64,000 bases of DNA. Origin: Aplysia californica. Its lineage: Eukaryota. Made by a program: the position numbers and the translations under genes. The notes beneath the pieces are model-generated. The model saw only the letters and a program-made list of their open reading frames with translations. It ran no database searches and was not told where the DNA came from. Every line of letters begins with the position of its first letter. Position 1 is the stretch's first letter. This document shows, piece by piece, positions 370 through 51,000 of this stretch. The stretch is from contig NW_004797342.1 in assembly GCF_000002075.1 (NCBI RefSeq), positions 1,109,380 through 1,173,379 of the forward strand, given 5' to 3'.

Positions 370-513
370 ATATAGAGTTGGACACTTTGACGGTTAATTT
401 AACTCTTTGCATTAATAAAATAAATGCTAAGCTGATGTTTAAACTCATTAAATCTAAGAGCAAATCACTAACATAAAATAATAAAATACAACAACAGACA
501 CAATAATGCACAC

Positions 514-718
514 CTGAAAATGTGAATGCTGCCGTGACCACTGGTCAAGAAAAAGAGATCCCCATCGTTGTTCCATGAAATCTCATTGACTTCAAACTTG
601 AACTGTTCCTCTGCCCGAGATCTATGAGATTTTGCATCGATGAAAGTCACCAGATCATCTTTGTTACCAACTGCAATGGTACTCCCATCTGGTGACCAAC
701 ATATGTTTATGTTCTCAC
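514..718 (-). CDS. THOC3: THOC3 coding exon 3
   Basis: gatacag|(G)ENINICWSPDG...HGSIHIF|gtgtgc. Confidence 0.92.
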
Positions 719-3700
719 CTGTATCAAAAGAAAAACAACAAAAATTTGAAGTCATACATGAACTAATTATAAACTCATTCAAACATATGTGAGTACAGGT
801 GTGGTGAATTCCCAAGACATAAAAAGGACAAGGACATGACAGCCCCACTGAGCCGTGATTGCCTGGACCACAAGATCTCTTGCAGAAAATGCGTACCAAG
901 CAAACGTTTGTCTTAGTTTGTTAAAGACAGATTAAAACTACATCTCATATCTTATTCTGGTATATGGCCATTTTCACAGTCTGTCTATCTGGTCTATCCT
1001 TTTTCCTCATGAGATTAACTGATTAGAAGATAAGCTCAAAGTGAGCTTGCCTTGGTATACTCATTATCATCATCAATGCCTTCCACCCCTGGCAGGGTAT
1101 TGGCCACATACAAGTTCATTCCATTTATCTCTGTCCTGGGTAATCTTTTCAGCCTCATTCTTTGGTTTATGCTTGCCTTTTTTTTTCTTTGGGGAAGGGG
1201 GAAGGGGTTTAAAACTTCTTGACAGCATTCTGAACTCTAAAAACAAATAGAAGAAGCAAGAAAACAATCCCATTCTGTATTTTCTGTATTGAGAAAGGCC
1301 TGAAAGAAGAGAATTCAGCGAAGAGATGTGTGGTAGCCATGTGTCTTTCACAGACAAGTTTTTATTTCCGTCTCAGGAAAATGAGGGAAAACATTCCAAG
1401 GGGAATACACCCCATCTGGGGAGCTAAAATAGAACCAATGCTAATAGAACTGCAAGTTTGGCCTTGTAAGTAGTAGACAATGACATCCAAGTAGGTCATG
1501 CAAAGAAGAAAGCTAGAGCAATCTCATGACAAATCAAATAAATGAAGCATACAAAAGTAGCACATTTTATTATTTTTTCCCATTACAGCATTCGGATCCC
1601 AAAAGAGGGCAATTTATAAATGCACTCATCATGATTTTTTTTAGTGCACACAAGAACTAGATCTATGCCATCCACTTAAAAGAAACCCTTGGTGGCTCAC
1701 ACTCTCCTAAGAGAACTTTAATACAGTAGATTAGTTTGAATACTAACAAAAACATTCTTGGCATGCATGTAATGTAACAGGGGCAGTAGGCTTTAGTTTT
1801 AGCAAGTCTTGTGGCACTTGCAACACATATATGGGGTAAAAGTGCAAAGAGTAGAGGTGTTACAACAGAGTAAAGTACAAAGAAAAGAAACAGAAGAGAT
1901 TTAAGGATGAAAGATGTTTGACAGGAAAGAAGGGGAGCAAACCACACCAAAGAACCTGCCAACCACCCAGACAGCAGATTTTAAAAGCATTTTTAACTTT
2001 ATAAAGGGGAAAATTTATGATGACAATGGCAATATATATCTACTCTATATATATCAGCAATATAACTTTATAAAACATTTAACGGAAGTGTCCTGATGGT
2101 AGTTTATGAATTAACTATTAACTTGCAAACCTTTTGTGTTAATACTGGCTGCTGCCTTATTTGTTCTTGCATCCCAGACACGAACGGTCTTGTCTCCACT
2201 GGCAGTTGCCAACTGGTCTGGATTTTGAGGATTCCAACAAAGTTGATCAACGCTAGCACCATGGCCCCTGAACACAGTGTAGTCTTTGGTCTGGAAGAAA
2301 ATGCCACACAAGTCTCTCTTGCATCAATGAAACCAATAAAAACAGAAAGGACTGATTTTTATCACCAAATCATAATCACATTATCTTTCCTTGTCTTACT
2401 TTTAACTAGTGACAGAGGGGAGATCATGATTTAGGTAGAGGGCTTTACTTTGGGACAAGAAGACAACAAAGGGTGGGTAGAAGACAGAAATGAGTTGCAA
2501 AGAAATGGTAGAGGAGAGCAGTAACCAAGTTTCATGTGCTAGTACTATTGAATTTTTTTTTTAAAAGAAAGAAACAGATTATAGATCTACACAAAATAGA
2601 TAATTTCCATTTCACATTTTTAAAATGTTCGATAAATCACATTATATTTAGATTTTAAATTATCATTAAAAAGTGGGATGTTTCTTGATACATCTAGTAC
2701 ATTTTGAAGGAAAACGTTCATGAAAGTCAATAATGAATTGGAGTACGATACGAAACTTGGCATCTTCACGAGATTTATTTAAAGCAGAATTTAGTTCTGC
2801 TATCACTCTTTCAATGTCTTTATTATTCTGAATCTTTAAGACTAATATATCTGAATGAAAATTTGATGATTTGCGCGACATCGCTTTAACTGATACCAAA
2901 AGGGGGCACAGCCTTGTGAGGCACCACAAAACTTCATAAGTTTTCAACACATCTTTTCTTAAAAACTACTTTGGTGGTCTAATTTTCAACACATTGACAG
3001 AAATTAGTCGAATTTACTCTACCTGGTCCGTCCTGGTACAAAAACGACATTTCGATATATAACTTTGATCTGAAAAGAATCAACGTTGTTCTCTGATCAT
3101 CCCTTCTACAACATAACAAAGCAGTATCAGGAAAACATGCAATGGATTCATTGGTGACCCATTTAGTTTTAGTTTTAGGCAGCCAACTACATGCCGTCTA
3201 GCGATCACGCGCCTCTCGCATGCCTGCAGGCTATGTGTTGAATTTGTGACCCAGTTTCCAGCTCTAGTCTATTATATCACATAATGGGTGGTAATTTCAA
3301 GTTGGTACATAAAATGTACTAAACACAGAGATCTGAAATTTTACAGCAAATAAAGAAGACACAGGGCACCTGTTTGGTCAGCAACCAATCCGCAGGTACT
3401 TTTAGTTTTTGAACAATGGAGGAAAAATCACATACACTGCAACTTCTCCGGTTCTAGAAATTTTTTTGCTTGCATTCATCATGTAAGTTTGACCTTTCTT
3501 CTGGTTGGTTGCCATGTTTCATTCATTTTCGTCCATGGGTTTTTCCGAAGCTATACTTTTAGAAGAGAGCCACCTCTGAACCCAAATGACCCAAAAAGTA
3601 CCCCTTGTGCAGAGCCCATTTCCAGCCTAGAGCGCAGTGCGCAATTGGCATTGTTTTCTTTGCATTGTCAACACTGTTTTCTCGACTCGAACACCCCCAT

Positions 3701-10933: not shown

Positions 10934-11465
10934 NNNNNNNNNNNNNNNNNNNNNNNNNNNNNNNNNNNNNNNNNNNNNNNNNNNNNNNNNNNNNNNNNNN
11001 NNNNNNNNNNNNNNNNNNNNNNNNNNNNNNNNNNNNNNNNNNNNNNNNNNNNNNNNNNNNNNNNNNNNNNNNNNNNNNNNNNNNNNNNNNNNNNNNNNNN
11101 NNNNNNNNNNNNNNNNNNNNNNNNNNNNNNNNNNNNNNNNNNNNNNNNNNNNNNNNNNNNNNNNNNNNNNNNNNNNNNNNNNNNNNNNNNNNNNNNNNNN
11201 NNNNNNNNNNNNNNNNNNNNNNNNNNNNNNNNNNNNNNNNNNNNNNNNNNNNNNNNNNNNNNNNNNNNNNNNNNNNNNNNNNNNNNNNNNNNNNNNNNNN
11301 NNNNNNNNNNNNNNNNNNNNNNNNNNNNNNNNNNNNNNNNNNNNNNNNNNNNNNNNNNNNNNNNNNNNNNNNNNNNNNNNNNNNNNNNNNNNNNNNNNNN
11401 NNNNNNNNNNNNNNNNNNNNNNNNNNNNNNNNNNNNNNNNNNNNNNNNNNNNNNNNNNNNNNNNN
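10934..11465. other. Assembly gap (N)
   Basis: N run flanked by (TA)n and (TG)n(CG)n. Confidence 0.99.
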
Positions 11466-23000: not shown

Positions 23001-26000
23001 TTACTATGGGAGGTAATAGGTGATGATGGCTTGTTGACCTCGACCCAAAGGGCAAAGGTTGTTTCTTTGCAGTCCCCCAGTGCGAAACACTAGGGGACTG
23101 CACAGTCCCTGAGTAGACCTATAAGCACTGCTAGAGGACTGCACAGTCCTCCAGTGGGTTGCGCTAGTCCAGTCCCGTAACATCTTCCATTGATGAAACC
23201 AGGATTGTTTTTCATGCCAATTTCACTTTCTGACCCCCCCAAAAACCCCCAACCAATACAAGATCACATCATTTCCATATGGATTTTCTTCAAACAGAAA
23301 AATATAATTATCTATCATCCATATTAAATTGAAATAAAAACAAAATGTTACGCTCCGATGTAAGTTAAAGACAAACATTTTTCCCTTCAGTTGATTAAAT
23401 GCTTGTCGTCATATGATACGAGTGCTTGAATCGATATAATCAAAGACACAAGTTATTCTAAAATTGCTTTTACAAATTACATTTATAGACTTTTGCTATA
23501 TTCAGGGGCAACTTTTATCGAGCAATATCGAGTTCACCAATTGGTAATCAGTATCCACATCGATATAGTAACCATCTACAAATATGTCTCCCTGTTGCTA
23601 GAATTATGCTGTGACTAGTATCACATGGTCCCCAAAACAATCAAGCTGAGGACTGGTATCTCCTTCAATTTTTGGTTTTGTGAAAGTAATGGGGTGCCTT
23701 GCACCAGAGCTGATCAGACATTGTAAGAGCACCCATTAAAAAAACAACAACTATGTCTCAGCTAATTTGAAAAAGGGGAAATAAACTCTTGGTAACATAG
23801 GTTTTCAGCTCACCTGCAGCAGCAAATTTGGTGAAGTTATCTAGGCCAGCTTTTGCAAAGCTATTGTAGGGAAAAGCACCTGGCCACTGTGATACAGAGG
23901 AAAAAAAAAGAAAATAGACATAAAGTATCATAATCAGTGAGCATGCTTGAGTGTACAATAAAGGAAGGGCATCTGTACAATAACTCATTCCAGTACTACA
24001 GCCCATACAGATACCTTCCGGATGTATTGTGTGCAATTAAATATATGGTCGCTTTTAAGGACTTAAGCGGGCTAACCCAGAAATCTTGACCGACACAAAA
24101 AGTGGGCATTGCCCAACCTATGGTAGGAGAAGTTTGGTTTCATTGGTGTGTATATTTGTTTGGTGACAGAGAAAACTCTTCTTGTCTTTTAAAGAAATTG
24201 AACAAGGGGCAAAAACTTAACCTTCGATTTTCTCAAAACAGCATTTTTTGGGACAGCCTCTCAAAACAGCATTTTTTGGGATAGCCCCCTTGTGCTTAAA
24301 AGTGACCATACGTGATGCATGCTCAAACGACAAAAAAGACATACAAAGATAGTAAAGAAGATTTACTGACAGGGGGCATTTTTCATGCAGCAATGATAAA
24401 AAAAACAAAAAGAAACTGACATAACAGCATCAAAGAACAAAAAATTTGTACAAATATTATTCCATCCCACAAATGTAGAGATCTCGGTGCATAGACAGAA
24501 CAGTAAGGAAATATTTTAAGCTAGTAATTGTATTCATTATTATGAACTACAGAAGTAAAGAAAAACAATTATATCCATGATGATTATCTTCAAACTCTGT
24601 ACACAATACATCATAAATGCATGCAAATTCCTATATTTCCAGGCACCTAATTAAAAATGGAGGATAGAGTAGTAGTAGCCTCGATAAAGTTGAAAAAAAA
24701 ATTTAAAAATCTTACGAGTCATTTCTCTTAATTATACATTAGCAAAGTAGGCCCTACAGAAAAACAAATCTCCTGAAAAGACTGATCGTTAACTTTCAAA
24801 ACAGATTCCCAAGTCAACAATAAAAGATTCAGAAAGTGTGAACATTTATTACCACTTCTGTTGCTGTGATTCCAGAGACATTGATTATATTTCCTGCAAA
24901 AGGAAAAAAGAAAGCAAAAGAGATTTTACAACAGAAATTAAAGCTATTTATTTTGCTCTAAACTCTAAAAGCACTAGTTTCAACACATGAAACAGATTGT
25001 GGCTCATCCATTACAAACATATGTGAGACATCGAGGTGAAATCAGGCGCTTGTCAAACTAAGTTCTAACGAAATCAGAGAAAAGGGCATTTCTCCACCAG
25101 TTGGGGGATTTTTGTCAAATTTTGTTTTTTTTAGCTCGAATCTTTTTGTGTCCACACAAAAATATATTTCCATATGAATTTACCTGAAAAACCTTAATTA
25201 GAGGCACCAAATATGTCATTTTTCGGTTTTCAATGACTCTTCAGCTACATGTATTGGAGTTGCCAAACTTCGGCGGTCATCATCTCACTAATTTCACCAC
25301 TGAAACCAGGCGACCTCACCTCTAATCGCAAATATCTTGACTTCTATTCAAGATAGATGCTTATTTTTGTGATTGAAAACAAAACAAAATAAACAAGTTT
25401 TCAGACGATACCAATAACTCCACATGCCCAAAAATTGATGAGTGCCTGATTCCACCGCGTCGTGACACATATATTATATATATACATGTGCAAAAACGAT
25501 ACTCGTGCTCTTGAACAATTAAGTAGCTTTCACTGCTTTCAGTAACTTTGCATTATACAGTAGAATCTTGTTATAATGAGAGGTAGGGGACTGGTGCGAA
25601 ATATAATCCGTTATAGCAGGATTCTCGTTATAAGGAATCCAGTAATAAATTTAAGGAAAATATTAAAGTAGGCCTAATCTATGAGTCTGGCGTTGTTTAT
25701 TTCTTTTTGTTATCTCCCTTGACGATGATTTTGTTCAACATGACCTCCAGGTCTTACTTGATCAAAAATTGAATCAGGTGTCTTTCTTTCTATAGCGCTA
25801 TCCCTGTTGACAGCTCGGTGTTGGCGATCAGACAGAAAGGGCTCTAGGCCAACTCGCCCATAGTGTTGTCCCCCACCCCACCATACCCTGTGGTGCGTTC
25901 CGTCTGCATGTGCACATTGGGTGCACACCTCACCCTGCCCACATCACACATTCGCTCCATCCATCACAGCACTGTGACTTCACCATCCCCTCACTGGAGA

Positions 26001-29000
26001 AGTGAGAGGCATGGTAGGCAAAGAAAATCTAGACTAGGCTGGCCTATCAAGCGATGCGCTCTGCTTGTCTGCGCATGCCACACCCTCCCCACTCAATCGC
26101 TCCAGCCTTCATTGTTGGCACACGTGGGCTCTCCCATTCTATGTTTCGTTAGATCACCAACAAGTTTCTCAACTGGCGAGGTTTTGCATAATATGTATAA
26201 TTGGCCTATGTGCTGTGCACAGCAGCAGCAATTTTTATATATTCCGCAATAACGGACGCCGTGTTTTCCTGATTGCGCTATAGCAGCATTTTATTTACAA
26301 AGATAAAGAAGAGAGAAAAACAGGGTTTTAGAATAGTATTTTTATAACAGACCTCTCGTTATTTCAGGACTAGTTGTAAGTGGACTCCACTGTAGTTTAA
26401 AAAAACAAATGAAAATGCATTTTTTGTCTTCCACTTGTTTCCCTTTTCACAGTGTTAAATTTGTTTCATGGATGTAATAATTAAAAATTAAATTCAAATA
26501 GACTATTAAGAAGTATTTAGATACTTACAGTTTCATAGAAAACACAAAATATGAATTACCTTTACGTTTGACCAAATATGGTAAGCATAATTTTGATAGA
26601 AGAACTGGTGCTTTCAGATACACATTAAAAGCAAAGTCCATTTGGTCTTCGGTGACATCACGAAGGAAGCCTGCCTGGCCACCTCCACCTGCATTGTTAA
26701 CCTTAAGAAAAGAAACAATCTTGCTGTACACAACAATAGCAGCATAGATCTCCTCAAAATGCACTAAGTTATAAGTCTACACATCAATGATATTTGGGTC
26801 ACCACGGAGTGGAATCAGGCGCTCGTCACTTTTTGGTCATGTGACTTTATAGGTATCATCGTAAAGCTTGTTCATTTGTCTAGCTTTCAGTTTAAAACAT
26901 ACTGATCTATCTTGAATAGAAGTTGAGATATTTGCGATTGAAGAAAGTGGGGGTCATCTGATTTCAGAAGTAAAATTAGCGAGAAAATGACCGTTATTAT
27001 ATGTTTGGTAACTTCCAAAGCCTGAGAATACTTGGAAACTACAAATTTACATTTTTGGGTGACTTTATTCCATGTTTTCAGTAAAATCTGCACAGTAATA
27101 TTTAATGTGTTTATAACTGGACATAAAAGGTATTGAGCTGAAAAACAACGTTTTGATAAAAATTGCCAAACGGATGGGAAAATCTTGGTTTCTTCAAAAT
27201 CATATTTCAACGAGCGCCTGATTTCACCATAAAGCCTCACATTTAAAGTATCCATTAAGATGAAGAAATGACAGAACTTACCCAATATCAAATGAGAATA
27301 AATATATTTAAAATTCAGGGAAGTGGAGTGGAAAAAAAACTATGACACAAATAAGTCATTCAGGTTATATTTTAAAAAGTCCAAAAATACTCAGAAAAGT
27401 GAAACCTTTTAATATAATAATATAGACTGACAGTCTTTGACACTCTCTGCAACAATAATATGATAGAGAGTGTCTAAATGCTCGATTCACTGCCAGAAAA
27501 TGAAAAGTAGAACATAACAAATGCACATGCATGAATGCGTGAAATTCATTATCTTTCTGAGCCGGCAATCACGAGGATGTAATGGGGATCTGGCCCCGCG
27601 GAAAATTGCATTTTTGAAATAGAAAAATTGCAAAAAATTCCAAGGTAAACTGCCTAAAAATTGCAACCTTCCCATCCCTGGTGCATTAGTACGGGCTTAA
27701 CATTTTTAGTTTAAAAAACATAACAATTTGAGTACCGGTAGCATAAAAGCAGAATGGCCTTTTAAAAAATCATGACCCACAATACAAATTTTATTAACAA
27801 GATTTACTAGTAACAACACTCGGGTACGTTAACAATAAAGTTATCGACCAAATAGAATATAATACCGCGTGACGCAAAACGGAACCCTCTGTTTTCGTAA
27901 TAACTTTTAAATAAAGGCATAAAATTTGACCAAATTTAGTTATACCGGGTACTTGGTTCTTGCAAAGATCTAAAAGTGTAGTATGAGGTTGAGTCTATCA
28001 AAACAAAAAATTTTATGGGAGACTTTGGAAACAACCTCTAAATGCAAAATTAGCTTATGCTCCAATCAATTCAGATCCTGTTCTATTTTTTTCTTGAAAC
28101 CTTCGATACACAGGTAATCTGTGTTTGGATCTATTTCAGATATTTTCTTTTTAAAAACCAGTAGGGTATTGTTTTAACACTAAGTCAAATCGTAAAATAC
28201 AGAACATTTTTTTTTCAATTTATAAACAGTAGTAATAATAATGTAGATCATTTCTATATCGCCCACTCCCGTGTGAACGCAGCATAAGGCATTTTGCATA
28301 TAACGGAGAGTCTACGTACACGGTAACCGGGCACCTAGCCTCAGTGTCTATGTACACAGTAACCGGCAACCGGTGTCACTTACACGGTAACCAGGCAGTT
28401 CAGAACTCCAAGTTCAGTTTTTGTCATCCGGTGTTGCCTTCAACCCTAGCCCTCTCCCGACTGTACCTTAAACTTTAAAAAAAAAATCAATAATCCCCCA
28501 ATTCCGGAGCCCTAGATCTATACTTCGCAGCGCACAAACTTTGAATGAACTTTGGTGACCCCCAACCGGTACTCACAATGTGATGCGAAAGCCCAGGTCC
28601 ACTGACCGGTCACGATGGCGGGCCCGACAAGACGCTTGCACATGTATGACTTTCTTTTTTTTAAAACAAGTGACAACACAGGACAAATATTGATTTATTT
28701 TCATTCCGTTTACCGTGTACGTAGATACTGAGACTAGGTGCCCGATTACCGCCGTGTATGTCATGTAGATACATGCATCATGTATGATTACGAACAATGT
28801 TCACGGGCGGCGCGCACACACACACACACACACGTACACTTTACACGTGCACACACACGCACACACCTACTTTCTAGCACACGCGCACGCTTACACACAT
28901 TAGATCTATAGGTGTAGTATCTTTGGTCTCAGTTTGTGTTGTATAATTTATTCCAGCCTGAAGTTCCGGTTATAGCTTTTAGAGTACGCCCAGTAGGCTA

Positions 29001-29533: not shown

Positions 29534-32500
29534 ATGCTCTCGATATACTTTCAGCACTTATACTAATGTGATATAACTAGTGAAGAACTTGATCAGCCAC
29601 ATCAAATTTTCAGACCATAAAGAAGTGGGACCTGAATTACAGTTCCTCTTGCCATTCCAGCATCAAAGCCCAATGTTCTAATGGGAGAAGCAAGCACTCC
29701 AACTTCAAAATGACCTACATATTTTTATAGTGTCGGGCGGGAAGAGAATTTAACTTCAACAGCAACATAAAAATGGTAAAGTTGATTAATTCAGTCAAAG
29801 ATAGTAAATAACAAGATGGGCCACTCAGCCAAAAAAGTGTCCGCAGGAAGTATGCTCTTTGCTTCAGATGGCGCTGCAGTCTGTTTTGAAGCTCTCTTTC
29901 GTTTTTCCAGAAGAAGAATAGGAATAGCACCTCCTTGCGTGCGCAGATCGACTGCTGTTCATCAGCAGTTCGGGTACGTTCAGTGCGGAGTTTTATTTTT
30001 ATTTTATTTTAATGACCTCTCGTCTTTCATTCTAAAGTCAAATTAAATGAAGAAAACCATCACCCTTTCCTCCGGAAGAGGTTTTTTGTCAGCGTAACCA
30101 TTTTAAAAAAGCGTTCTTCCGAAATTTATCCCAAAACTTGCTAGTTTCACTTTGATTTTTTAAAACTCAAGTAGGGTAACTCTGTTCGCAAAGAGTGCGC
30201 TTTTGTGAAGAGGGCGCCACCAAATTTTGAGGACACTTTTTTAATTGGCTCAAAGAGAGAAGTGGCCCATCTTGTTATGTACTATCTTTGATTCAGTCAG
30301 AATGGTCACAGCTGTGTCTCCAGACTGGCAGAGTAAAGAAAAGATTTCCCTAGAAAATAAGTCCATCATAGAAGAAGCAGAAGATATTCTATATAATTTA
30401 TAAACATATACTCACTTATGATAACAAAAGCAAACCATTTTTTTTCCAGATATCAAAATTCCAATTTCTGATTAACTCTATCTGAAGAAATATGCAGTGT
30501 ATCAATTGACCAGCATGTGTAAAAAGAAAATGTATCAGTCATCCTCACCAAAATATCTATGCAGCCAAACTTTTGAACAGTCTCTTCCACCATTTTTTCA
30601 CGAACAGCAGGGTCTGTAATATCACCTGTCACTGTGTGCACCTACTGAAGAAAAGGGAGCTATCAAAATTGATTACATATCCCAAAAAAAAGAAGAAGGA
30701 GGAGGAGGAGGAGGAGGAGGAGAAAAAGAAGAAGAAGAAGAAGTAATTTACAAAAAATACATGTGCATGAACATGTTCAATATTGTGGTATACCAGAAAC
30801 TCATACATGTACTATCACAACACCATAAACGATGGTGTGCATTTCAGACTGCATTTATTCACATTAAATTAACAATTTGAACCTTAGAGTACAACAGATA
30901 AAACGGATTAACAGTCAATTTCACTTTTCTACACTATTCATGAAACATCTGTGATCTAAATTGCTTTGGTGGGGTGCAAAACATTCACAAGTACAACTTT
31001 TGTTGTTAAAATATCTGTGTCTGACACAATTTGTATTTTTTGTTTTGAGATACACCAAAACAACTTGTGACTCGAATTTCATGATCACAAAAATCAATAT
31101 GTAACAAAGAATACACCATTATAATTGGCATTCTACAAGCTATTCTGAAAAATATCCTGGCCTTTGAGATAAAATACACATTGTCTTACATGTTCCTTTG
31201 CTCTTTGAGTTAAGTTCATGAGTTATCGTATGCCTTTGGCTGTTTTTCCAAGCTGTCCTCGTGATTATATGCACCCCGCATAATTTTGCAAAATTTGATA
31301 ATTTTTTGCATAATTTCTGATATTATTTTCCTTTATCATTCTTTGTTAAAATTACCAGAATCGCATAATTTCACATTTTTGGGCTCAGTTTGCATAATTT
31401 CAGAATTTTTCTTGAATAAAACGACGGGGACAGTCCAAGGCAGTGGGGGGAGAGAAGCCAGAGGTTGGGGGAAGGGGAAGTGGGAGGTTGAGGGTGGGGG
31501 CATGGGGCCTTGACTTCTTGAAAATACTTATGTCTCATCATTATACTGTCGGGACTTACTTGTCAATATCATAATCTTTACCTCGGCAAGATTCTTTGAT
31601 ATTAACGACACTGCAAAACGAAGCAATCCACCCACCCTCACACCTGAATTGTAAACACCAATCAGACTTGATCTAATTTAATGCCCTCAGCACTGTCTTT
31701 ACTGTGGCGAATCAGAAGGGACTTACACTGAAATACACTTATCCACCTAGATCGCAGTAGACTATGGCTGATCGAGTGGGACTTACGGCAGCCGCCGCAG
31801 AGCGGTACACCTTGAACTAAACTGGTGCCCATATTTTTTAAATTCAAAACATGTAGGCCTACATAGCAAAATACATATATATATACATTGAAGAGATTTC
31901 AATATCCCACCAATTTCACTATATGTGCCTGCTAGACTGCACTATCAAAGCTGACCTCTTCTGACGTAGATCCATTCTGCAAAAGCATTAGCTTCACTTC
32001 TTCCAGCTTCTCTTCACTGCGTCCATGAATTGTAATTTTTGCACCTCGCTTTGAGAAAAGTCTAGCAGTGGCTTCTCCAATTCCTGAACTACTTCCTGAA
32101 GAAAAGAAGAGAAAAGCATTTTAGGAGCAAGTTAAGTCATAGTATGCACAAATAATGTTACAAAAATCAATTTTGGCTGCAGAATAGGGTAATAATTAAT
32201 ATCAAAGAAATATTTACGAAGTAAATCAATGAAATTGAGGAATTATTTCCACAACAGCACAGTCTCAATGAAATTATGAGGAGAAAATATGAAACATCTC
32301 TTTCATGTGTGCACCTGATCACCTGTAAATTCATGTCATTTCATTATAAAGGTATAAAAGGACAACACTGTTACCTGCTTTGTTTGTTTTTGTAAAGTGT
32401 TTTACGGCGCTCGCAACTGCATAAGGTCATATGAGGGCGCGGGACACACCTAATATTTTCAGTTGGTAGGAAATTTGGAATTTTGCTCGGGTGGCGGCCG

Positions 32501-33504
32501 AAATCTACTCTTATCGATTTTAGACCACCAAGGGATCTTTAACGTGTGCAAGTTGCACACGGGCCCTCCGAGATTTTTCGCCCATGTCTGGGAAGGTTAG
32601 GTGTAGATCTTTCCTACCAGAAGATCAGGGGTGTGGCAGAAAGACAGCAGTAAGGAGGAGCCAAGGAGTAGCAGTAGAAAGGTTGCAGAAAGAGTCAGGA
32701 GCCCAGACAAGGGGGCAAAGGAGGTGAGGGGGTGGGGGCAGAAAGTGGAAATGAAAGCAGACAAGAGAACATTGCTAGAGAGCAGGAAAGGAGGTGAAAG
32801 GAAACAATTTTAGAGACGAAAATTTTTTGGTCGCTACCCGGATTCGAACCCGGGACCTTTGAATGAGAGGCCAACACCTTAACCTCTAGACCACGAGAGC
32901 CCCCCTGTTGCCTGCTTCGACTTTATTTCAAAATAAATTTTGAAAGATTGGACTGATTTCACTGTTATTAATCAGAATAATGTTTTAAAGGTAATCTTGA
33001 CAAAACAATTATCTGAACCTGTAATCACAGCAACACGATCCAGAAGACTGAGGCGATCCATCATAGGATATGTTGAGTTATAAGTTATAATTCCTTTTAT
33101 CTTCCTGCACACCTGAAACAGAAAATCAAAGTACACAGGAAGTAAGACAAAGTTTACATGCAAGCCAATTATAAACATATTTCTTCATTTCAGTGTTGGC
33201 TCACCATACAAAATATATAATAATGTATCTGTAATGATGTGGTATTTTTAACAACACAAAGCAAAAAAGGAAAAGTTGAGAAGTCGGCAGAGCCCATGAT
33301 AATCCACATGTGGTAAGCTCAAAATGGAACAGCTCTTTTACCTGGTGAGTTGTGATGAGGTAATATCCAGTGGCGGTGGGTGGACCAAAATTTGGGTGGG
33401 GCTTAGGTTTCTTCCAGTTTTTTACCACCAAATAGAAAGCAATAAGAATTAAACAGTGATGATTTTTCTATACTCACGGTGAGCCACGGCAGTTTGAGAA
33501 CCAT
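16839..33504 (-). CDS. Short-chain dehydrogenase/reductase (classical fold, FabG-like), 10 exons, 303 aa, atypical active site
   Basis: Exons 33478-33504, 33019-33112, 31956-32095, 30549-30641, 26560-26701, 24853-24893, 23814-23886, 20312-20348, 18277-18340, 16839-17039 join in frame (912 nt). SDR motifs: VAVITGSSSGIG, IHGR, GDIT, IDILVNNAG, GVRVNCVRPG, PEDVA..IAF.ASD.A.F.TG....DGG. Confidence 0.92.
17686..18095 (-). mobile_element. Uninterrupted copy of the 11920-12655 retroelement
   Basis: Colinear with 11920-12655 but lacks the nested SINE (empty site gaatggccttaa). Confidence 0.75.
18277..18340 (-). CDS. SDR exon 9
   Basis: tttcag|(R)PGVVVTPSFNAAFPDSSVREQ|gtatgc. Confidence 0.9.
18367..18450 (+). 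mobile_element. pogo/Tigger-like MITE end fragment
   Basis: TA|CAGTGAAACTCGGATTCAACGA with internal inverted ctcgttggatccgag; other end not found. Confidence 0.55.
19960..20260. mobile_element. Partial copy of the same MITE family
   Basis: ccactgaaaccagg...gcaaatatc..gacttctattcaa...tgacaagcgcctgattcca. Confidence 0.65.
20312..20348 (-). CDS. SDR exon 8 (37 nt)
   Basis: tttcag|(E)FGQAGVRVNCV(R)|gtgagt. Confidence 0.9.
21365..22925. mobile_element. Middle MITE (hAT-like start CAGACTTGCCAAC)
   Basis: Inverted agaaaggtaccaaaagtcg (~21455) / cgacttttggtacctttct (~22838). Confidence 0.55.
21806..22623. mobile_element. pogo/Tigger-like MITE
   Basis: TA|CAGTCGAACCTG ... CAGGTTTGACTG|TA, with repeated acggccacc subterminal motifs. 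Confidence 0.85.
23814..23886 (-). CDS. SDR exon 7 (active-site helix)
   Basis: tcacag|WPGAFPYNSFAKAGLDNFTKFAAA(E)|gtgagc. Confidence 0.92.
24853..24893 (-). CDS. SDR exon 6 (41 nt)
   Basis: ttgcag|(G)NIINVSGITATEV|gtaata. Confidence 0.88.
25019..25472. mobile_element. ~450-bp MITE (aatcaggcgc-t-gtca TIR family)
   Basis: TIRs atgtgag...gtgaaatcaggcgcttgtca / tgatgagtgcctgattccacc...cacat; related copies elsewhere in the window. Confidence 0.75.
25558..26392. mobile_element. Diverged pogo/Tigger-like MITE
   Basis: TA|CAGTAGAATC ... GACTCCACTG|TA with cgttata subrepeats. Confidence 0.65.
26560..26701 (-). CDS. SDR exon 5
   Basis: cttaag|VNNAGGGGQAGFLRDVTEDQMDFAFNVYLKAPVLLSKLCLPYLVKRK(G)|gtaatt. 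Confidence 0.93.
26790..27245. mobile_element. Same MITE family, opposite orientation
   Basis: gtggaatcaggcgctcgtca ... acgagcgcctgatttcacc. Confidence 0.7.
28303..28775. mobile_element. Foldback MITE with tacacggtaacc subrepeats
   Basis: 28310-28360 (gggcacctagcctcagtgtcta) is inverted at 28710-28760 (tagatactgagactaggtgccc). Confidence 0.65.
29796..30290. mobile_element. P-element-like MITE
   Basis: 30-bp TIR CAAAGATAGTA(A/C)ATAACAAGATGGGCCACT (29/30 identical); 7-bp TSD attcagt at 29789-29795 and 30291-30297. Confidence 0.85.
30549..30641 (-). CDS. SDR exon 4
   Basis: cagtag|VHTVTGDITDPAVREKMVEETVQKFGCIDIL|gtgagg. Confidence 0.93.
31956..32095 (-). CDS. SDR exon 3 (Gly-rich cofactor motif)
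   Basis: cttcag|(G)SSSGIGEATARLFSKRGAKITIHGRSEEKLEEVKLMLLQNGSTSEE|gtcagc. Confidence 0.93.
32381..32904 (-). mobile_element. Full-length tRNA(Glu)-derived SINE with Deu/Nin-like central domain
   Basis: Head has A box TGGTCTAGAGG, CTC anticodon-like loop and B box GGTTCGAATCC. Central ggcccgtgtgc...cacgttaaagatccc. 13-bp TSD ctgtt(a/g)cctgctt at 32368-32380 and 32905-32917. Confidence 0.88.
33019..33112 (-). CDS. SDR exon 2
   Basis: tttcag|VCRKIKGIITYNSTYPMMDRLSLLDRVAVIT(G)|gttcag. Confidence 0.85.
33478..33504 (-). CDS. SDR exon 1 (MVLKLPWLT)
   Basis: ATG at 33504 and strong donor gtgagt, phase 0 and in frame with exon 2. It could instead be 5' UTR if translation starts at MM in exon 2. 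Confidence 0.6.
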
Positions 33505-39400: not shown

Positions 39401-39858
39401 NNNNNNNNNNNNNNNNNNNNNNNNNNNNNNNNNNNNNNNNNNNNNNNNNNNNNNNNNNNNNNNNNNNNNNNNNNNNNNNNNNNNNNNNNNNNNNNNNNNN
39501 NNNNNNNNNNNNNNNNNNNNNNNNNNNNNNNNNNNNNNNNNNNNNNNNNNNNNNNNNNNNNNNNNNNNNNNNNNNNNNNNNNNNNNNNNNNNNNNNNNNN
39601 NNNNNNNNNNNNNNNNNNNNNNNNNNNNNNNNNNNNNNNNNNNNNNNNNNNNNNNNNNNNNNNNNNNNNNNNNNNNNNNNNNNNNNNNNNNNNNNNNNNN
39701 NNNNNNNNNNNNNNNNNNNNNNNNNNNNNNNNNNNNNNNNNNNNNNNNNNNNNNNNNNNNNNNNNNNNNNNNNNNNNNNNNNNNNNNNNNNNNNNNNNNN
39801 NNNNNNNNNNNNNNNNNNNNNNNNNNNNNNNNNNNNNNNNNNNNNNNNNNNNNNNNNN
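39401..39858. other. Assembly gap (N)
   Basis: N run flanked by microsatellites. Confidence 0.99.
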
Positions 39859-41851: not shown

Positions 41852-42494
41852 NNNNNNNNNNNNNNNNNNNNNNNNNNNNNNNNNNNNNNNNNNNNNNNNN
41901 NNNNNNNNNNNNNNNNNNNNNNNNNNNNNNNNNNNNNNNNNNNNNNNNNNNNNNNNNNNNNNNNNNNNNNNNNNNNNNNNNNNNNNNNNNNNNNNNNNNN
42001 NNNNNNNNNNNNNNNNNNNNNNNNNNNNNNNNNNNNNNNNNNNNNNNNNNNNNNNNNNNNNNNNNNNNNNNNNNNNNNNNNNNNNNNNNNNNNNNNNNNN
42101 NNNNNNNNNNNNNNNNNNNNNNNNNNNNNNNNNNNNNNNNNNNNNNNNNNNNNNNNNNNNNNNNNNNNNNNNNNNNNNNNNNNNNNNNNNNNNNNNNNNN
42201 NNNNNNNNNNNNNNNNNNNNNNNNNNNNNNNNNNNNNNNNNNNNNNNNNNNNNNNNNNNNNNNNNNNNNNNNNNNNNNNNNNNNNNNNNNNNNNNNNNNN
42301 NNNNNNNNNNNNNNNNNNNNNNNNNNNNNNNNNNNNNNNNNNNNNNNNNNNNNNNNNNNNNNNNNNNNNNNNNNNNNNNNNNNNNNNNNNNNNNNNNNNN
42401 NNNNNNNNNNNNNNNNNNNNNNNNNNNNNNNNNNNNNNNNNNNNNNNNNNNNNNNNNNNNNNNNNNNNNNNNNNNNNNNNNNNNNNNNNNNNNN
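41852..42494. other. Assembly gap (N)
   Basis: N run. Confidence 0.99.
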
Positions 42495-45086: not shown

Positions 45087-48000
45087 GTAAATTCTGATAC
45101 CTTTAAAAGGCTTACAGCCAGTAGGGTTAACCATTCTGCTATGATGAGAGTTGTTGAATTAGATATTGATGCTCTTTTTCTTTTTGCGTGTGTGTGTGTG
45201 CTTTTTATAAATTGAGATTAGAGACCTTGTTTTATCTTTTGATTAAAATGGAAGTATTAAAGCAGCCTTTGTAACAAGATAAACTTTCTTTATGGCAAGG
45301 CCCACTGGTGCACATTATCTCTCTTTTACTCCATCACTGAATTAAAAGGAGCTAAGCCACTTTTAAGACAAATATAAAACTTGTATTACGGGACTGCATG
45401 AACAAGGCTTAAACCCCTGACCTCTGGCATGAGATATTTGGTGACTTATTAATGAGCCAAAACCATTCTCATCATATTGTCGTGTAAACACCATTTTGAT
45501 CTACTTTTTGTTTCTAACTATTAGCAGGAAGCTACCAGAACCTTTTTGGATCTTTATCAAGCGTATATTGTCGTGGGGGGAAAACCCAACACGGTGCTTG
45601 AAGCGTTTTGTGGAAAAAAAAAATCTAATCCCTATTATCAGTACTGTTTATGGTCTGGAATTTCTATAGTTTGCTATGCTCATAGTGGCCACCAAAGACT
45701 ACTTACATAAACCAGCAAAGAAAGTTTGTGGTACGGTAGTAGTTTTACCTGGGATGTTTTCGGGTGTTTCTCTTAAACGGACTAAATGTGCATATAACAC
45801 ATTTTTTAAATGAAACTCTTCATGTATATATAGTGGGATACCCTCTGTCTTGACTGGTCATTGTGTCGTAAAGCCGTGACATGTGGCAGCAAGATTTTTT
45901 AGATCAACAGTTTGTAAACAGAGGCAGCCAAAGAAGCAAGAAAACCAAGGCAGTCACGTCCTGACATTGACATCACCCAACAGACTTTATGTGCTCTGTT
46001 TGTGGAAAATTCTTGTAGAAAAGAGTATTAGTATTAAAAGGTCACAAGTGAAGCAATAAAAAGGTTTAACCAACAAACTTATGTTTAGGCTGACTAGTGC
46101 TCTACTTTAGGAAAGAGAAAGTCGCTGATTGGTGAGTTGCTGTGTTTGTGATAATTACAGTTTGCTGGCAATTTTTTTCTGTTTCTTTTCTTTCTTTACT
46201 GTGCCAGCTTCCTGTAATTTCTTTTCTTCTTTGGATTTTAGCAGTCATCGTCAGTTTATGATGGACAAAGTGTTATTATTATAATATTATTGTTTTTATT
46301 ATTATTGAAAGGAATGCAATAAAATTAACTTTTTATGTGTATTTCTTGTGTTGTTTCTCAGCTCCACAACAATTCTGGATATCCAGATCATCCATTCCTC
46401 TACTGTGGCAAAAGAAATCATTGAGAGAAAGACAACCCCTTCCAAAATGACTAAAGAGATTGATGAGGTGACAAAACCCAGGTGTTCATCTCCAGTGAAA
46501 ATCATCAAAGCAGCTTCTAAAGCTCGTTCTGCAGGCTTTACACCGTCATCCTCTGCCAATTCGAACTCGAATACTGAGAAGGGGCAGGGGAAAAGTTCTC
46601 ATGGGTGCAGAAGAAAATTGTCACCACCCGATAGCCCGTCAGCTCACCTGTTGAAGGGAAACAACTCTGTGGGGCCTCGCCCACGAATAAGTAAAAGTGC
46701 CAACAGGGACGGCTATGATTCTAACGACCAGGGAGTCGGACAGGGTAATGGACAGGGTGAGTGGTACTCTGGTATAGTTAGAGCTATTGTACAACCCTAG
46801 TGTGGAGACATCCTCCACAATATGTCCCCCTTGTTTCAGCAAATAGTTTTATTTTTATCTGACAACTGGTACTTTAGAAATGTATGATTTAATACATTTT
46901 TTAGGGTCTGAGAATGGGAGTCCTTTTTGTGTTGGAAAATATGTGTCCTTTGTTTTTTAGTATTGTCAATGCTGAATAAAAGTTATGAACTCCCGAAACA
47001 GGATTTGTGAATAATAATGAAAATGAAGCCATTCATCAATTGGAGAGACCTTTACTAAACAGGGATGTAAATATTTCAAATTTCCTTTTATTTAAGGTTT
47101 TCTGTAATGAAATTTTAAAAAAGTAATAAAAAGAGAGGGTTAGGGGCTGAATCAATAAAAATGGAAAGAAAAAAAGTGTCTCCCATATAATCTCTAACTG
47201 AATTGCATGATGCATTTGTGTCCGAGTCTTGCACATTATTACAATTACCTTTGCAGTCCTTAATCACACACTAAGTTGGCACAGAAACACACACCCACAG
47301 TTTTTTTTCTCATCACACACATAATGTGCGATTCTGACTATCATGACAACAACTTCGTAAGAACAAATCTAAAGTACAATGATTTTATAGGTTTCCTAGG
47401 ATTTCTTTAGGAAAAAACTGGAAAGCTGTTGAGAAATGTATGGTGCTAATCGTCAAAGTTAATGCTAATCTTTGCCAGGTTGCCTATTGAATGCATTGGA
47501 TATCAAAGCTGGTTCAGAGTTCCTCTGGAAAAGTATTAAAAATGTTTTCTAATGTGCTTGTGTCCAAATGCATTGAAGTAGTGTAATATGTTTAGAAAGT
47601 CTTTGAAAATACTGTCATCCAATAACACTGCCGTATGAAGGTCTTGCTGTAGACCTTATGGTCTTGTCTGAGAAGAGAGCAGTACTACCAAGATCTTACT
47701 TCTACCTGTTGTGCAAAAATATCATGAAATTTGGGACTTTTGAAGCAACTACATTAGGAAAATAAAGAAAGATAGGATAGTGTGATGCTGTGTCTGCAAT
47801 TAGCAGCATATCGGAGATAAGTATCGAAGTGATGGTTCGCCTTGCTGTACTTTTGCACTTGCGACATCTTGCAATGTTTCAAAGATCACGCAACAATGAA
47901 AGTGCACAAAAGAGGTCAGTTATGAATTTAATATTGTTTTTTAAAAAAAAGTGGGGAGCATTCTATGTTGGTATCTCATGTTTTTCACAATCTTTTTTAT

Positions 48001-51000
48001 TTAATTGAAAACTTGTTTGAATCTTCCAGTGTTAGGCCTTGTAGTATATGGGGTACCGATAATGAAATTTAAATTCCTATTTCATAATAACAGGGACAAC
48101 CTCTTGCTTTCTTGACTTCGAAATGAGTTAAAGGGGTAAGACTACCCCAATTATTAAGGTTTTGGAATCTAATGTCAAGTTGTTTTTTTGGGGAAATCAG
48201 CTTGACAATCAATATTATTTTTGCACAGGAGTTCATGGAGCAAAGCAGCGTGGTCACCAAGGCCAGGACAGTCAGTACAGAAAACACAGTGCCAGCAAAA
48301 AGATGGAGAGAGGTGGAAAAAAGGGTGCCAATTCCTGGAATAGTGATTGCTTTAGTGCACCTGCAGAGTCATTCTTGCAGGACTTTGACTTTGAATCCAA
48401 TCTTGCCTTGTTCAATAAAAAGGCTGTCTTCCAGGAAATTGAAAATGACTTTCCCGATTTGAGTCTAGAATCGGATCCCAGGGAACAAAAATACCGACAT
48501 GATGAGAACATTCTGCAGCCTGGGGAGAGCACAAATGCCGGTCCTGCTACAATTCAGCAGATACAGGTTCCTGGAGCTGAGTCACAGTTGTATTACACAG
48601 GTAATGTTTCGCTTTGTACATTATTAAAATCTTTTGGGTTTTTTTTTTTACTTAATGGTTTAGTGTTTGGAACAGATTATTTTACTCTTCCCTAAACTGA
48701 CTGTTGGTGGTTTTTCTAATTAATTCCTTATGAAAATGAAAATGCCACTTTCATTTATTTCCATAAAGAGGAATGAGTCACAAACCATGTAATCCTTCAA
48801 TATGAAATAATTCACAAGTTATTCACACTACATGATACATTTGTCAAACTACTACGGCAAACAATTTTACAAGGTCATCATAGCCTGGGTTGTTTTGTCT
48901 TGTACGTACTCACTCACCAATGACTGTTAACTAACGGTGAAAGGGATGTTGCTGATATTGCTCTTCAGGGTGAGCCTTGGTCCACAGTCACTAGTATGTA
49001 GTCCACTGACCCTTTTACTTTTATTAAATATCCTATCTACGTGCTACATCTACCTGGGGGTTTTTTTAAGTGGATTTTTTTTTTCTTTTTTTGGTACTGA
49101 AAATGCCTTCTTGTTCCTACGAAAATCGAACTGTGCCAGTAGTGTTTTTTGGGAACTTGTTGAGCCCCAACATTTCAGTTGTGAGAAAAGATAAAGTAAG
49201 AGTCAGTTCAATTAAAATGCATAGTAAAATTATTTTTTCTCCTTGCACAGTTTAGTATGCATGCAAGTATTTTTATGGTAAATGATGGGTTGGTTATGAT
49301 CTTTTTGGGGGGGGGTTTACTTTTTAACCTGATGTTACTGGTGGAATCTTGTCTCATTCTGATGGTGAACATTGTCAAATGCCACAACATTATGAATCAA
49401 GGTCATCGAAAGGGGCTTGAAAAATATGATGAAACTTAATAATTTGGTTGCCTTAAATTGTAAAATTCAGGATGTGACATATTTGAAAAGCAAAGGTTTT
49501 TGAGCATTTTTGCAGCTAGGAATACGTTCTTGAGCCTCTTACTAGTTTGCCACTGTGGCCACATTTTTATCCTTGTGTATAGTTTCTTTACCATGGCTTT
49601 GTTATGATCATTCTAAGAGCTTTGAATTTTTTAATGAACTTTTGGTATATGTTATTTGTACACGATCAGACTCATAAAAAGGATCGCAGCTATCAAGCTA
49701 AGAGACAGGATTTTTCATGTTTTCATTCTTATTTACAGACAATGGTCTGGTCGTCCCGTCTATCAGCTTTGAGCTGCGAGAACAAGTGTGTGATACAGCT
49801 GCACATCATGGCCTTACTCGCTCACGGCAAATTGAAGCATTTGGCCGAGCAGCCACTGAGATGGTCATACACCTCATAGGGGGCAGCCACAGGTATGTTT
49901 TGGGATGGAATAACTTGAGGATTTTGTATTTGTACACATGGGCTAGTCAGTTCACTCGCTTCTGTTCTGTTCATTCATTATTCTTGAGTCACCTTTTTGC
50001 AGTCTGAGGCTATTGAGAATGAAGGAGTGGTCAGCACAAGTATTGGCCATAGTTTATGTGTTGAAAGAGTGGCATTAATGTTATTTCCTTGTGTTAATGA
50101 CTAAATAATTGAAAATGAGTTAGTCAATAAATTAATGTTATGAATTGTGGATCTTACTGTCTTCAGAATTCATCCAAAGAATGACCACCAGATGCCAGTT
50201 GTGGTGGTGTTGTGTGGACCCCACGACCAAGGTACCCTGGGTGTGTGCTGTGCACGGATACTTGCCTCTCATGGGGTACAGGTATGTACTCGTTTTGCAT
50301 ACTATCTGTAGTGCATCATTGTCATTATGATTCTGAATGTTTCAAGTTTCATCTGAATATCTATAGTGCAGACTGCTCTGGTTTTTGGTTTTCAAGAAAC
50401 CCATGATTCATTTTTAGTGCATCTAATTGTTTAATTTAGACGTAATTCTTTCTCTACTGACTTCTAATACATTGCTTCTGTTGTCACTGGTGGAATCGTA
50501 CACTCATTAGGTGACTGGTTGGCTTTACAGCTCCTCTCAAGTGACAGACTGTTGCTCAGTCTTTGCAAGTTGTATAATCTTTGCGCTTTCTGGCACCTTA
50601 ATTCAATATGAAATAATATAAATTGCATACTTTGGGAGAAAGTTCAAATGATACATGTGATAATGTATACATTATAGTCTTTTCTTCTTTTTCAAACTTT
50701 TATTATTTTTATAAATTAATTCCAACTGTTGAATATTTTACCACTTTTCAAAGTGCCAACAAGGCTGAATAATCCATCTAGATCTACTGTAATTCATGGT
50801 CTTTTGGCTGAATTGGTGAGGGCTTCTGTAGATGAGGGGTAATAAACTGACAGACTGATTAGATTCAGTGCGTCTAATGGTAGAATGTTTATGAATGACT
50901 GTGCTCAAACATGCACATGGACTATTTACTTTGTTTCCTTTCTGGTTCCCTTTCCTTCCTTTGCCCTTCATCTTTACACAAACCTCTTACTGATTAATCA

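Follow-up and report, generated by a model that had tools for sequence, protein, structure and literature searches.

A short-chain dehydrogenase/reductase gene of Aplysia californica, spliced and under purifying selection, with three altered active-site positions

Can a short-chain dehydrogenase/reductase (SDR) that has lost its catalytic serine and the normal spacing of its active-site tyrosine and lysine still be a working enzyme? The question is raised by a minus-strand gene in a 64,000-nucleotide stretch of the Aplysia californica genome (contig NW_004797342.1, positions 1,109,380 to 1,173,379; the window), in whose 278-residue product Tyr121 replaces the asparagine of helix alphaE, Gly148 the catalytic serine, and Y161-N-S-F-A-K166 (Y-x4-K) the YxxxK motif. 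The analysis identified a real, selected, and lineage-restricted SDR variant within a family in which deviant tetrads are already known. Its motifs suggest, tentatively, an NADPH reductase of an already activated substrate that would need no serine.

Gene model and active-site positions

Nine coding exons, with AG acceptors and GT donors throughout, joined to an open frame of 837 nt, and the 278-residue product was identical to the RefSeq isoform X2 model (P0002, which bears an automatic name and the label Aplysia californica). In isoform X1 (P0001) it is preceded by 25 further N-terminal residues, the first nine of which are coded by an upstream tenth exon (33504-33478). The Pfam family adh_short_C2 matched the 278-residue protein at E 8.7e-51, and the motifs TGSSSGIG (residues 15-22), HGR, VNNAG, and DGG were kept. 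The features, in window coordinates, are as follows.

33478..33504, minus strand: tenth exon, lying upstream of exon 1 and translating to MVLKLPWLT, which matches the N-terminus of the longer isoform X1 (P0001)
33019..33112, minus strand: exon 1, with the ATG of the 278-residue form at 33064, strand betaA, and donor GTTCAG
31956..32095, minus strand: exon 2, with the (T)GSSSGIG glycine motif and HGR (Arg41, NADP-type position)
30549..30641, minus strand: exon 3, with GDIT (Asp69) and helix alphaD
26560..26701, minus strand: exon 4, with VNNAG and helix alphaE; no other letters in the contigs of runs X11 and X9
26618..26620, minus strand: Tyr121 (TAT) at the alphaE Asn position; same codon in the second copy on contig C143
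24853..24893, minus strand: exon 5, with strand betaE and NVSG; both joints present in contigs
24871..24873, minus strand: Gly148 (GGA) at the catalytic Ser position
23814..23886, minus strand: exon 6, 73 nt, the start of helix alphaF with a one-codon insertion
23851..23868, minus strand: Tyr161-Asn-Ser-Phe-Ala-Lys166 (Y-x4-K); Ser at 162 in the C143 copy
20312..20348, minus strand: exon 7, with GVRVNCV and strand betaF; joints in contigs
18277..18340, minus strand: exon 8, with PG, Thr197, and the substrate-binding loop; joints in contigs
16839..17039, minus strand: exon 9, with alphaG, betaG, DGG, the PNYDD tail, and the stop

The exon 1 donor GTTCAG (window 33011-33018) is a weak consensus and is identical in the C143 copy. 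Exons 4 and 5 (window 24853-26701) together measure 183 nt; skipping both leaves the reading frame intact and deletes NNAG, alphaE, and betaE.

An earlier note made from the letters alone had reported the three replacements, and each was found where it had been placed: TAT at 26620-26618, GGA at 24873-24871, and the Y-x4-K codons at 23868-23851. The last is a true one-codon insertion, since exon 6 measures 73 nt against 70 nt in all seven of the paralogous exons recovered. Gly148 and Tyr161 are 13 residues apart, the same distance as Ser146-Tyr159 of paralog P0007, and setting PGAFPYSCAK of paralog P0034 beside PGAFPYNSFAK places the insertion immediately after the tyrosine; a doubled serine codon is its likely source.

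The rarity of these states was assessed in 301 other proteins of 200-330 residues out of 339 retrieved, 288 lying outside and 13 inside the clade of relatives described below; P0001, P0003, and P0004 were left out as same-gene or exon-skipping models. Outside the clade, the alphaE position was Asn in 261 proteins and Tyr in none, and the serine site was Ser in 273, Thr in nine, and Gly in two (Ser or Thr in 282/288). A tyrosine stood four positions before the lysine in 279 of the 286 having that lysine, and Y-x4-K without Y-x3-K occurred in 0/288. Inside the clade, alphaE was Leu in nine, His in two, and Ile and Asn in one each, the serine site was Ser in nine, Ala in two, Thr in one, and a gap in one, and the tyrosine position held Tyr in 10/12 and Phe in 2/12. 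The alphaE Tyr, the Gly at the serine site, and Y-x4-K were each seen in 0/13 of these relatives.

The protein has the single Rossmann domain of classical SDRs (adh_short_C2, predicted fold) and their cofactor motif TGxxx[AG]xG as defined in Table 3 of PMC2792337 (papers are cited by accession, from excerpts of their texts), and it lacks YxxxK, the catalytic Ser after betaE, and the alphaE Asn. It would not be filed as a canonical classical enzyme, as three defining active-site features fail despite the classical fold. No paper combining “YxxxxK” with SDR was found in the literature searched, which lay mostly outside subscription papers. No paper on this gene or its accessions was found either, including in the Aplysia SDR literature (titles and abstract starts), and nothing specific was found in literature on a gastropod expansion of SDRs.

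Transcripts, second copy, and selection

Four sequencing runs (X11, X9, X23, and X24) were compared with window 17750-27400, which covers the joints from exon 4 to exon 8. The joints E4-E5, E5-E6, E6-E7, and E7-E8 were present at the predicted sites in one contig each of X11 (depth 61.4) and X9 (depth 19.4), which come from two studies, and the contig letters showed no differences from the genome in exon 4 of either run or in exon 6 of X9. The raw polyA runs X23 and X24 held zero reads spanning these joints, and expression is therefore not general; the joined cDNA proposed earlier was thus confirmed for joints E4-E8 by two contigs and lacked spliced reads in the other two runs. Among the run matches listed, the last exon with its 3' flank was present in 20 of 24 runs from seven studies and none was recorded as RNA; the contig joints constitute the evidence of splicing. 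An alternative exon with a canonical YxxxK was rejected, as the known exon 6 was the only match both in a splice-aware scan of 15001-36000 and when four relatives were compared with the window by tblastn. Very deep, divergent coverage on both strands was seen in all four runs at intronic positions 21600-22900, 23900-24400, and 25150-25500, which are probably dispersed repeat families.

A second copy of the gene, complete in its nine exons with their GT/AG ends, was identified at G000:C143:103804-117049. It shares the TAT codon of alphaE, the GGA codon of the serine site, and the 73-nt exon 6, in which its residue 162 is Ser and not Asn. Over 262 codons the two copies differed at a synonymous rate (dS) of 0.213 and a nonsynonymous rate (dN) of 0.042, giving dN/dS of 0.20 (bootstrap 0.12-0.33; Fisher p 9e-10), an average over both branches for which the full-length C143 form was reconstructed from the genome. 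Exons 4 and 5 were constrained on their own (pN 0.036, pS 0.177, p=0.004), as was exon 6 (pN 0.036, pS 0.24, p=0.025), and no constraint was detected in the 28 codons of the substrate loop (p 0.59). The cofactor-side residues TGSSSGIG, Arg41, Asp69, NNAG, Lys166, PG, and Thr197 were identical in both copies. The C143 copy carries one extra base after DGG (G000:C143:117049-117100) that truncates its tail; the old frame past this base still resembles the conserved tail, and the base is either a recent change or a fault of the assembly.

Colinear blocks, mostly 69-87% identical, link window 11645-33356 with G000:C143:103513-121798 and include the gene plus about 5 kb past its stop, constituting a segmental duplication of about 22 kb. 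The C143 copy was rejected as a haplotype duplicate on the basis of this divergence and the dS of 0.21, a reading also countered by the confinement of colinearity to window 11645-33356 within the 50 kb compared.

The hallmarks of a pseudogene (broken frame, neutral evolution, no spliced transcript) were thus absent, and the earlier view of an intact gene that is not decaying was upheld by the open frame, the E4-E8 contig joints, and the dN/dS. That the locus is a decaying duplicate or an assembly error is largely refuted and scarcely credible: two of the four runs lack spliced reads, exon-skipping models exist, and the C143 tail has its extra base, against which stand the open frame, spliced contigs from two studies that match the genome, the measured constraint (dN/dS 0.20, Fisher p=9e-10), and three changes common to two loci.

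The gastropod clade and the alphaE tyrosine

In a tree of 40 rows chosen from database matches, the window gene and its C143 copy grouped at 100/100 on a stem of 0.34 inside a 17-row clade (100/99), the named members of which come from gastropods (Aplysia, Physella, Lymnaea, and Bulinus); the branching order of the four subgroups was not settled by the tree. Clade relatives were 47-57% identical, and those in the same genome had the same exon pattern. Among the paralog regions of that genome, a subset picked from exon matches, Ser was present in 9/9 recognizable copies of exon 5, and copies of exon 6 were 70 nt long with YxxxK in 7/7. Several clade members share with the window protein a C-terminal P-x-Y-[DG]-D tail. 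In a second lineage (P0011 and P0012), Leu stands at the Asn site, Ala at the Ser site, and Phe at the Tyr site, with the lysine retained; its members are independent candidate pseudoenzymes. Only the window gene and the C143 copy carry the Gly and the insertion in the clade. A metagenome scan found no ortholog, its best match being 40% identical, and the missing orthologs are weak evidence of absence, the protein and HMMER searches being judged from the top 120-150 matches listed. About 12 intron-rich SDR relatives were located on G000 contigs C50, C145, C240, C242 (three), C315, C895, C1297, and C1405, and several long single-stretch SDR matches on C698, C701, C83, C638, and C921. The related locus at G000:C315:599361-622217 has three identical exon-4 matches, two of exon 6, and several of exon 2, repeats that reflect either partial tandem duplication or mis-assembly.

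This background did not sustain the idea of three concerted changes, as the alphaE Asn is lost in 12/13 clade relatives, while 10 of the 13 keep YxxxK. Since Asn is also absent from members keeping both Ser and YxxxK, the site had already been freed, and Tyr is one of the several residues it has come to hold. According to Kavanagh 2008 (PMC2792337), the alphaE Asn puts a kink in the helix and holds the relay water through its main-chain carbonyl; a side-chain change there need therefore not break the relay, and the clade shows such tolerance. The proposal that Tyr121 acts as a relocated general acid on helix alphaE consequently fared badly and is now very improbable. In its favor, the codon is identical in both copies and alphaE Tyr occurred in 0/301 other homologs. 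The site nonetheless varies among the 13 clade relatives (Leu in nine, His in two, Ile and Asn in one each), including members with Ser and YxxxK, the Asn adjacent to Lys acts through its main chain (PMC2792337), and His, the state of P0006 and P0007, is one base away from Tyr.

Structure of the active-site helix

An AlphaFold model of the window protein, built from 150 sequences, had a mean predicted local distance difference test score (pLDDT) of 93.8, with a bridge at residue 158 and a helix at 159-181. In a control made with the same sequence set, the intact paralog P0007, the bridge was at 156 and the helix at 157-178 around Tyr159 and Lys163. Each helix starts two residues ahead of the Tyr and stops 15 residues past the Lys; the secondary-structure strings therefore suggest that the extra residue is absorbed inside the helix in a bulge-like manner. 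The local pLDDT near the insertion was 87-90 compared with 95-99 in the control, and the input alignment had put Tyr161 in the tyrosine column, which biases the model toward a bulge. Single insertions in helices commonly form pi-bulges (PMC10334792), and in divergent SDRs the Tyr and Lys remain close despite different spacing (PMC2792337).

A gap-free alignment to the solved nematode SDRs 1spx, 1xhl, and 1xkq instead set F159-P160-Y161-N162 on F-P-Y-Y of 1spx (FPYYSIAK), with Asn162, not Tyr161, at the catalytic position and an equal distance from the serine site to Lys. A register shift with Asn162 at the catalytic site therefore has a solved precedent. The earlier note missed this reading of the insertion, and the choice between bulge and register shift is about even.

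Explanations of the altered site

The favored explanation sees in the protein a spliced descendant of classical SDRs, held by purifying selection, that has given up the serine of the catalytic site and the usual distance between Tyr and Lys and probably still binds NADPH, as predicted from its motifs, on a Rossmann fold predicted to be intact. Hydride would likely be passed to a conjugated C=C, iminium, or quinoid group and not to an ordinary ketone, with Lys166 anchoring the nicotinamide ribose and Gly148 removing the carbonyl-polarizing hydroxyl and opening space. Tyr161 would either be kept near its place by a helix bulge, hydrogen-bonding the intermediate, or be displaced, the proton then coming from water or substrate, and Tyr121 may be a packing residue at the site freed earlier in the clade. 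In the order envisaged, the alphaE Asn would have been lost early in the clade, and the Ser to Gly change, Tyr121, and the insertion would have arisen before the window/C143 duplication. It is further conceivable, at rather long odds, that the one-codon insertion with its pi-bulge and the Ser to Gly change turned a ketoreductase into a conjugate (C=C/C=N) reductase for dietary algal metabolites, a natural Y-x4-K site absent from the literature searched and set in a snail clade that would have shed tetrad residues more than once. Algal metabolites of the diet are a putative source of such a substrate. In support of a reductase of an activated substrate, the two copies agree, at a dS of 0.21, in each cofactor-side motif that was checked, Lys166 and Arg41 included, and the non-catalytic subunit PhBS-beta lost exactly that Lys and Arg (PMC13418739); the constraint on exons 4 and 5 and on exon 6 and the fold of the model (pLDDT 93.8, Z 38.6 to 1xkq) also count in its favor. 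Related chemistry has been described for PECR with Tyr replaced by Phe and for enoyl reductases taking the proton from solvent (PMC2792337), for SimC7 with substrate-assisted catalysis and hydride transfer without the triad (PMC5039031), and for the S148A mutant of ZtSDR, which gave 17% imine conversion vs 42% for the wild type (PMC7540600). Several points weigh against this explanation. Loss of Ser lowered the specific activity of ZtSDR from 30 to 2 mU/mg and its Y161A mutant had <1% conversion (PMC7540600), S163A abolished the activity of PhBS-alpha (PMC13418739), and noroxomaritidine reductase (NR) and ZtSDR, which reduce C=C/C=N, keep the full Ser-Tyr-Lys triad (PMC7540013). NR was rejected as an example of a missing catalytic Ser, since it keeps S148 (PMC7540013). 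The dN/dS speaks for constraint on the protein and not for constraint on its catalysis; RefSeq models of both the window gene (P0003) and the C143 copy (P0004) omit exons 4-5; no ortholog in another species was among the top 120-150 matches listed in the protein and HMMER searches; and a shift of the helix register would cost the protein three of its four tetrad residues.

That register shift, with Asn162 in the Tyr position, underlies the other serious possibility, somewhat less probable, of a non-catalytic NADP(H)-binding pseudoenzyme that would serve as a structural subunit in a heterotetramer with an intact paralog, in the style of BbsC/PhBS-beta, or as a ligand or redox binder. It is consistent with the gap-free nematode alignment and its unchanged Ser-site-to-Lys distance, with the loss of the catalytic Ser, with the intact paralogs in the genome (Ser in 9/9 exon-5 and YxxxK in 7/7 exon-6 copies recovered), and with the second clade lineage without Ser and Tyr; the shared P-x-Y-[DG]-D tail also fits, as the inactive subunit of PhBS/BbsCD lends its C-terminus to the active site (PMC13418739). 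It is opposed by the retention of Lys166 and Arg41, unlike in PhBS-beta (PMC13418739), by the truncation of the C143 tail, and by the AlphaFold model, which keeps Tyr161 in the register of the control Tyr159, though the alignment favored that. The preference for a reductase of an activated substrate over such a pseudoenzyme is slight and depends on inference. It is unlikely that the protein is still a carbonyl reductase whose site has loosened, with a bulge that pairs Tyr161 with Lys166, a surviving carbonyl-water relay of alphaE, and water, a backbone NH, or Thr150 in place of the Ser hydroxyl. A bridge three residues and a helix start two residues before the Tyr in model and control alike, the helix longer by one residue in the model (159-181 vs 157-178), and the published behavior of single helix insertions (PMC10334792) and of Tyr-Lys pairs in divergent SDRs (PMC2792337) speak for it; the Ser or Thr of 282/288 outside homologs, the loss of most or all activity in Ser mutants (PMC13418739, PMC7540600), and the lower local pLDDT (87-90 vs 95-99) speak against it.

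Comparison with known systems

The nearest solved members are the Caenorhabditis elegans proteins 1xkq, 1xhl, and 1spx, invertebrate FabG-like classical SDRs, the model superposing on 1xkq with Z 38.6 and a root-mean-square deviation of 1.6 Å over 264 residues at 35% identity. Common to them and the window protein are the Rossmann domain, TGSSxGIG, the Arg after betaB, NNAG, Lys, PG, and DGG; they retain Ser and YxxxK, and also Asn (two of the three, and on the printed alignment 1xhl as well), where the window protein has Gly, Y-x4-K (or Asn in the position of the Tyr), and Tyr, respectively. The gastropod clade resembles it in having mostly lost the alphaE Asn and differs in that most members keep Ser/Thr and YxxxK. 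PECR (1yxm) matched the 64-residue catalytic core at E 5.3e-6 in row 45 of the best 60 matches; DECR, PECR, and FabI were not among the best 30 Foldseek or best 50 VIA-align matches, by which kinship is not excluded. The active-site Tyr of DECR presumably lies after betaE, and no Tyr follows betaE in the window protein. Enoyl-thioester reductases (FabI/InhA, DECR, and PECR) likewise depart from the tetrad, a solvent proton being possible (PMC2792337), and could serve as a mechanistic parallel for the window protein; the divergent-SDR motifs GxxxxxSxA and YxxMxxxK (PMC2792337) are absent from the window protein, which has TGSSSGIG and YNSFAK instead. PhBS-beta/BbsC also combine an SDR fold and a broken tetrad kept by selection beside active relatives; PhBS-beta lost the Lys and the cofactor Arg (PMC13418739), and the window protein and its C143 copy keep Lys166 and Arg41. 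SimC7, which acts on a bacterial polyketide, is a precedent for triad-free hydride transfer (PMC5039031) and is likened here by mechanism only.

Neighboring genes

An exon of a THOC3-like WD40 gene lies at window 468-920 on the minus strand (PF25174, E 3.1e-25, under the whole-protein cut-off), and an FDF domain (PF09532, E 2.9e-8) is encoded at 48132-48695 on the plus strand, perhaps together with 46309-46800, in a gene that we take to be EDC3-like. The window contains three runs of N (10934-11465, 39401-39858, and 41852-42494), none within the SDR gene.

Significance for the SDR family

The reach of the finding is limited to two copies in one species. If the protein is inactive, it would add an animal example with intact cofactor motifs to the few SDR pseudoenzymes known. 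If it is active, it would offer a natural test of how much of the SDR tetrad can be removed and of whether a single helix insertion alters the chemistry, the intact paralogs in the same genome, 54% identical, being ready controls.

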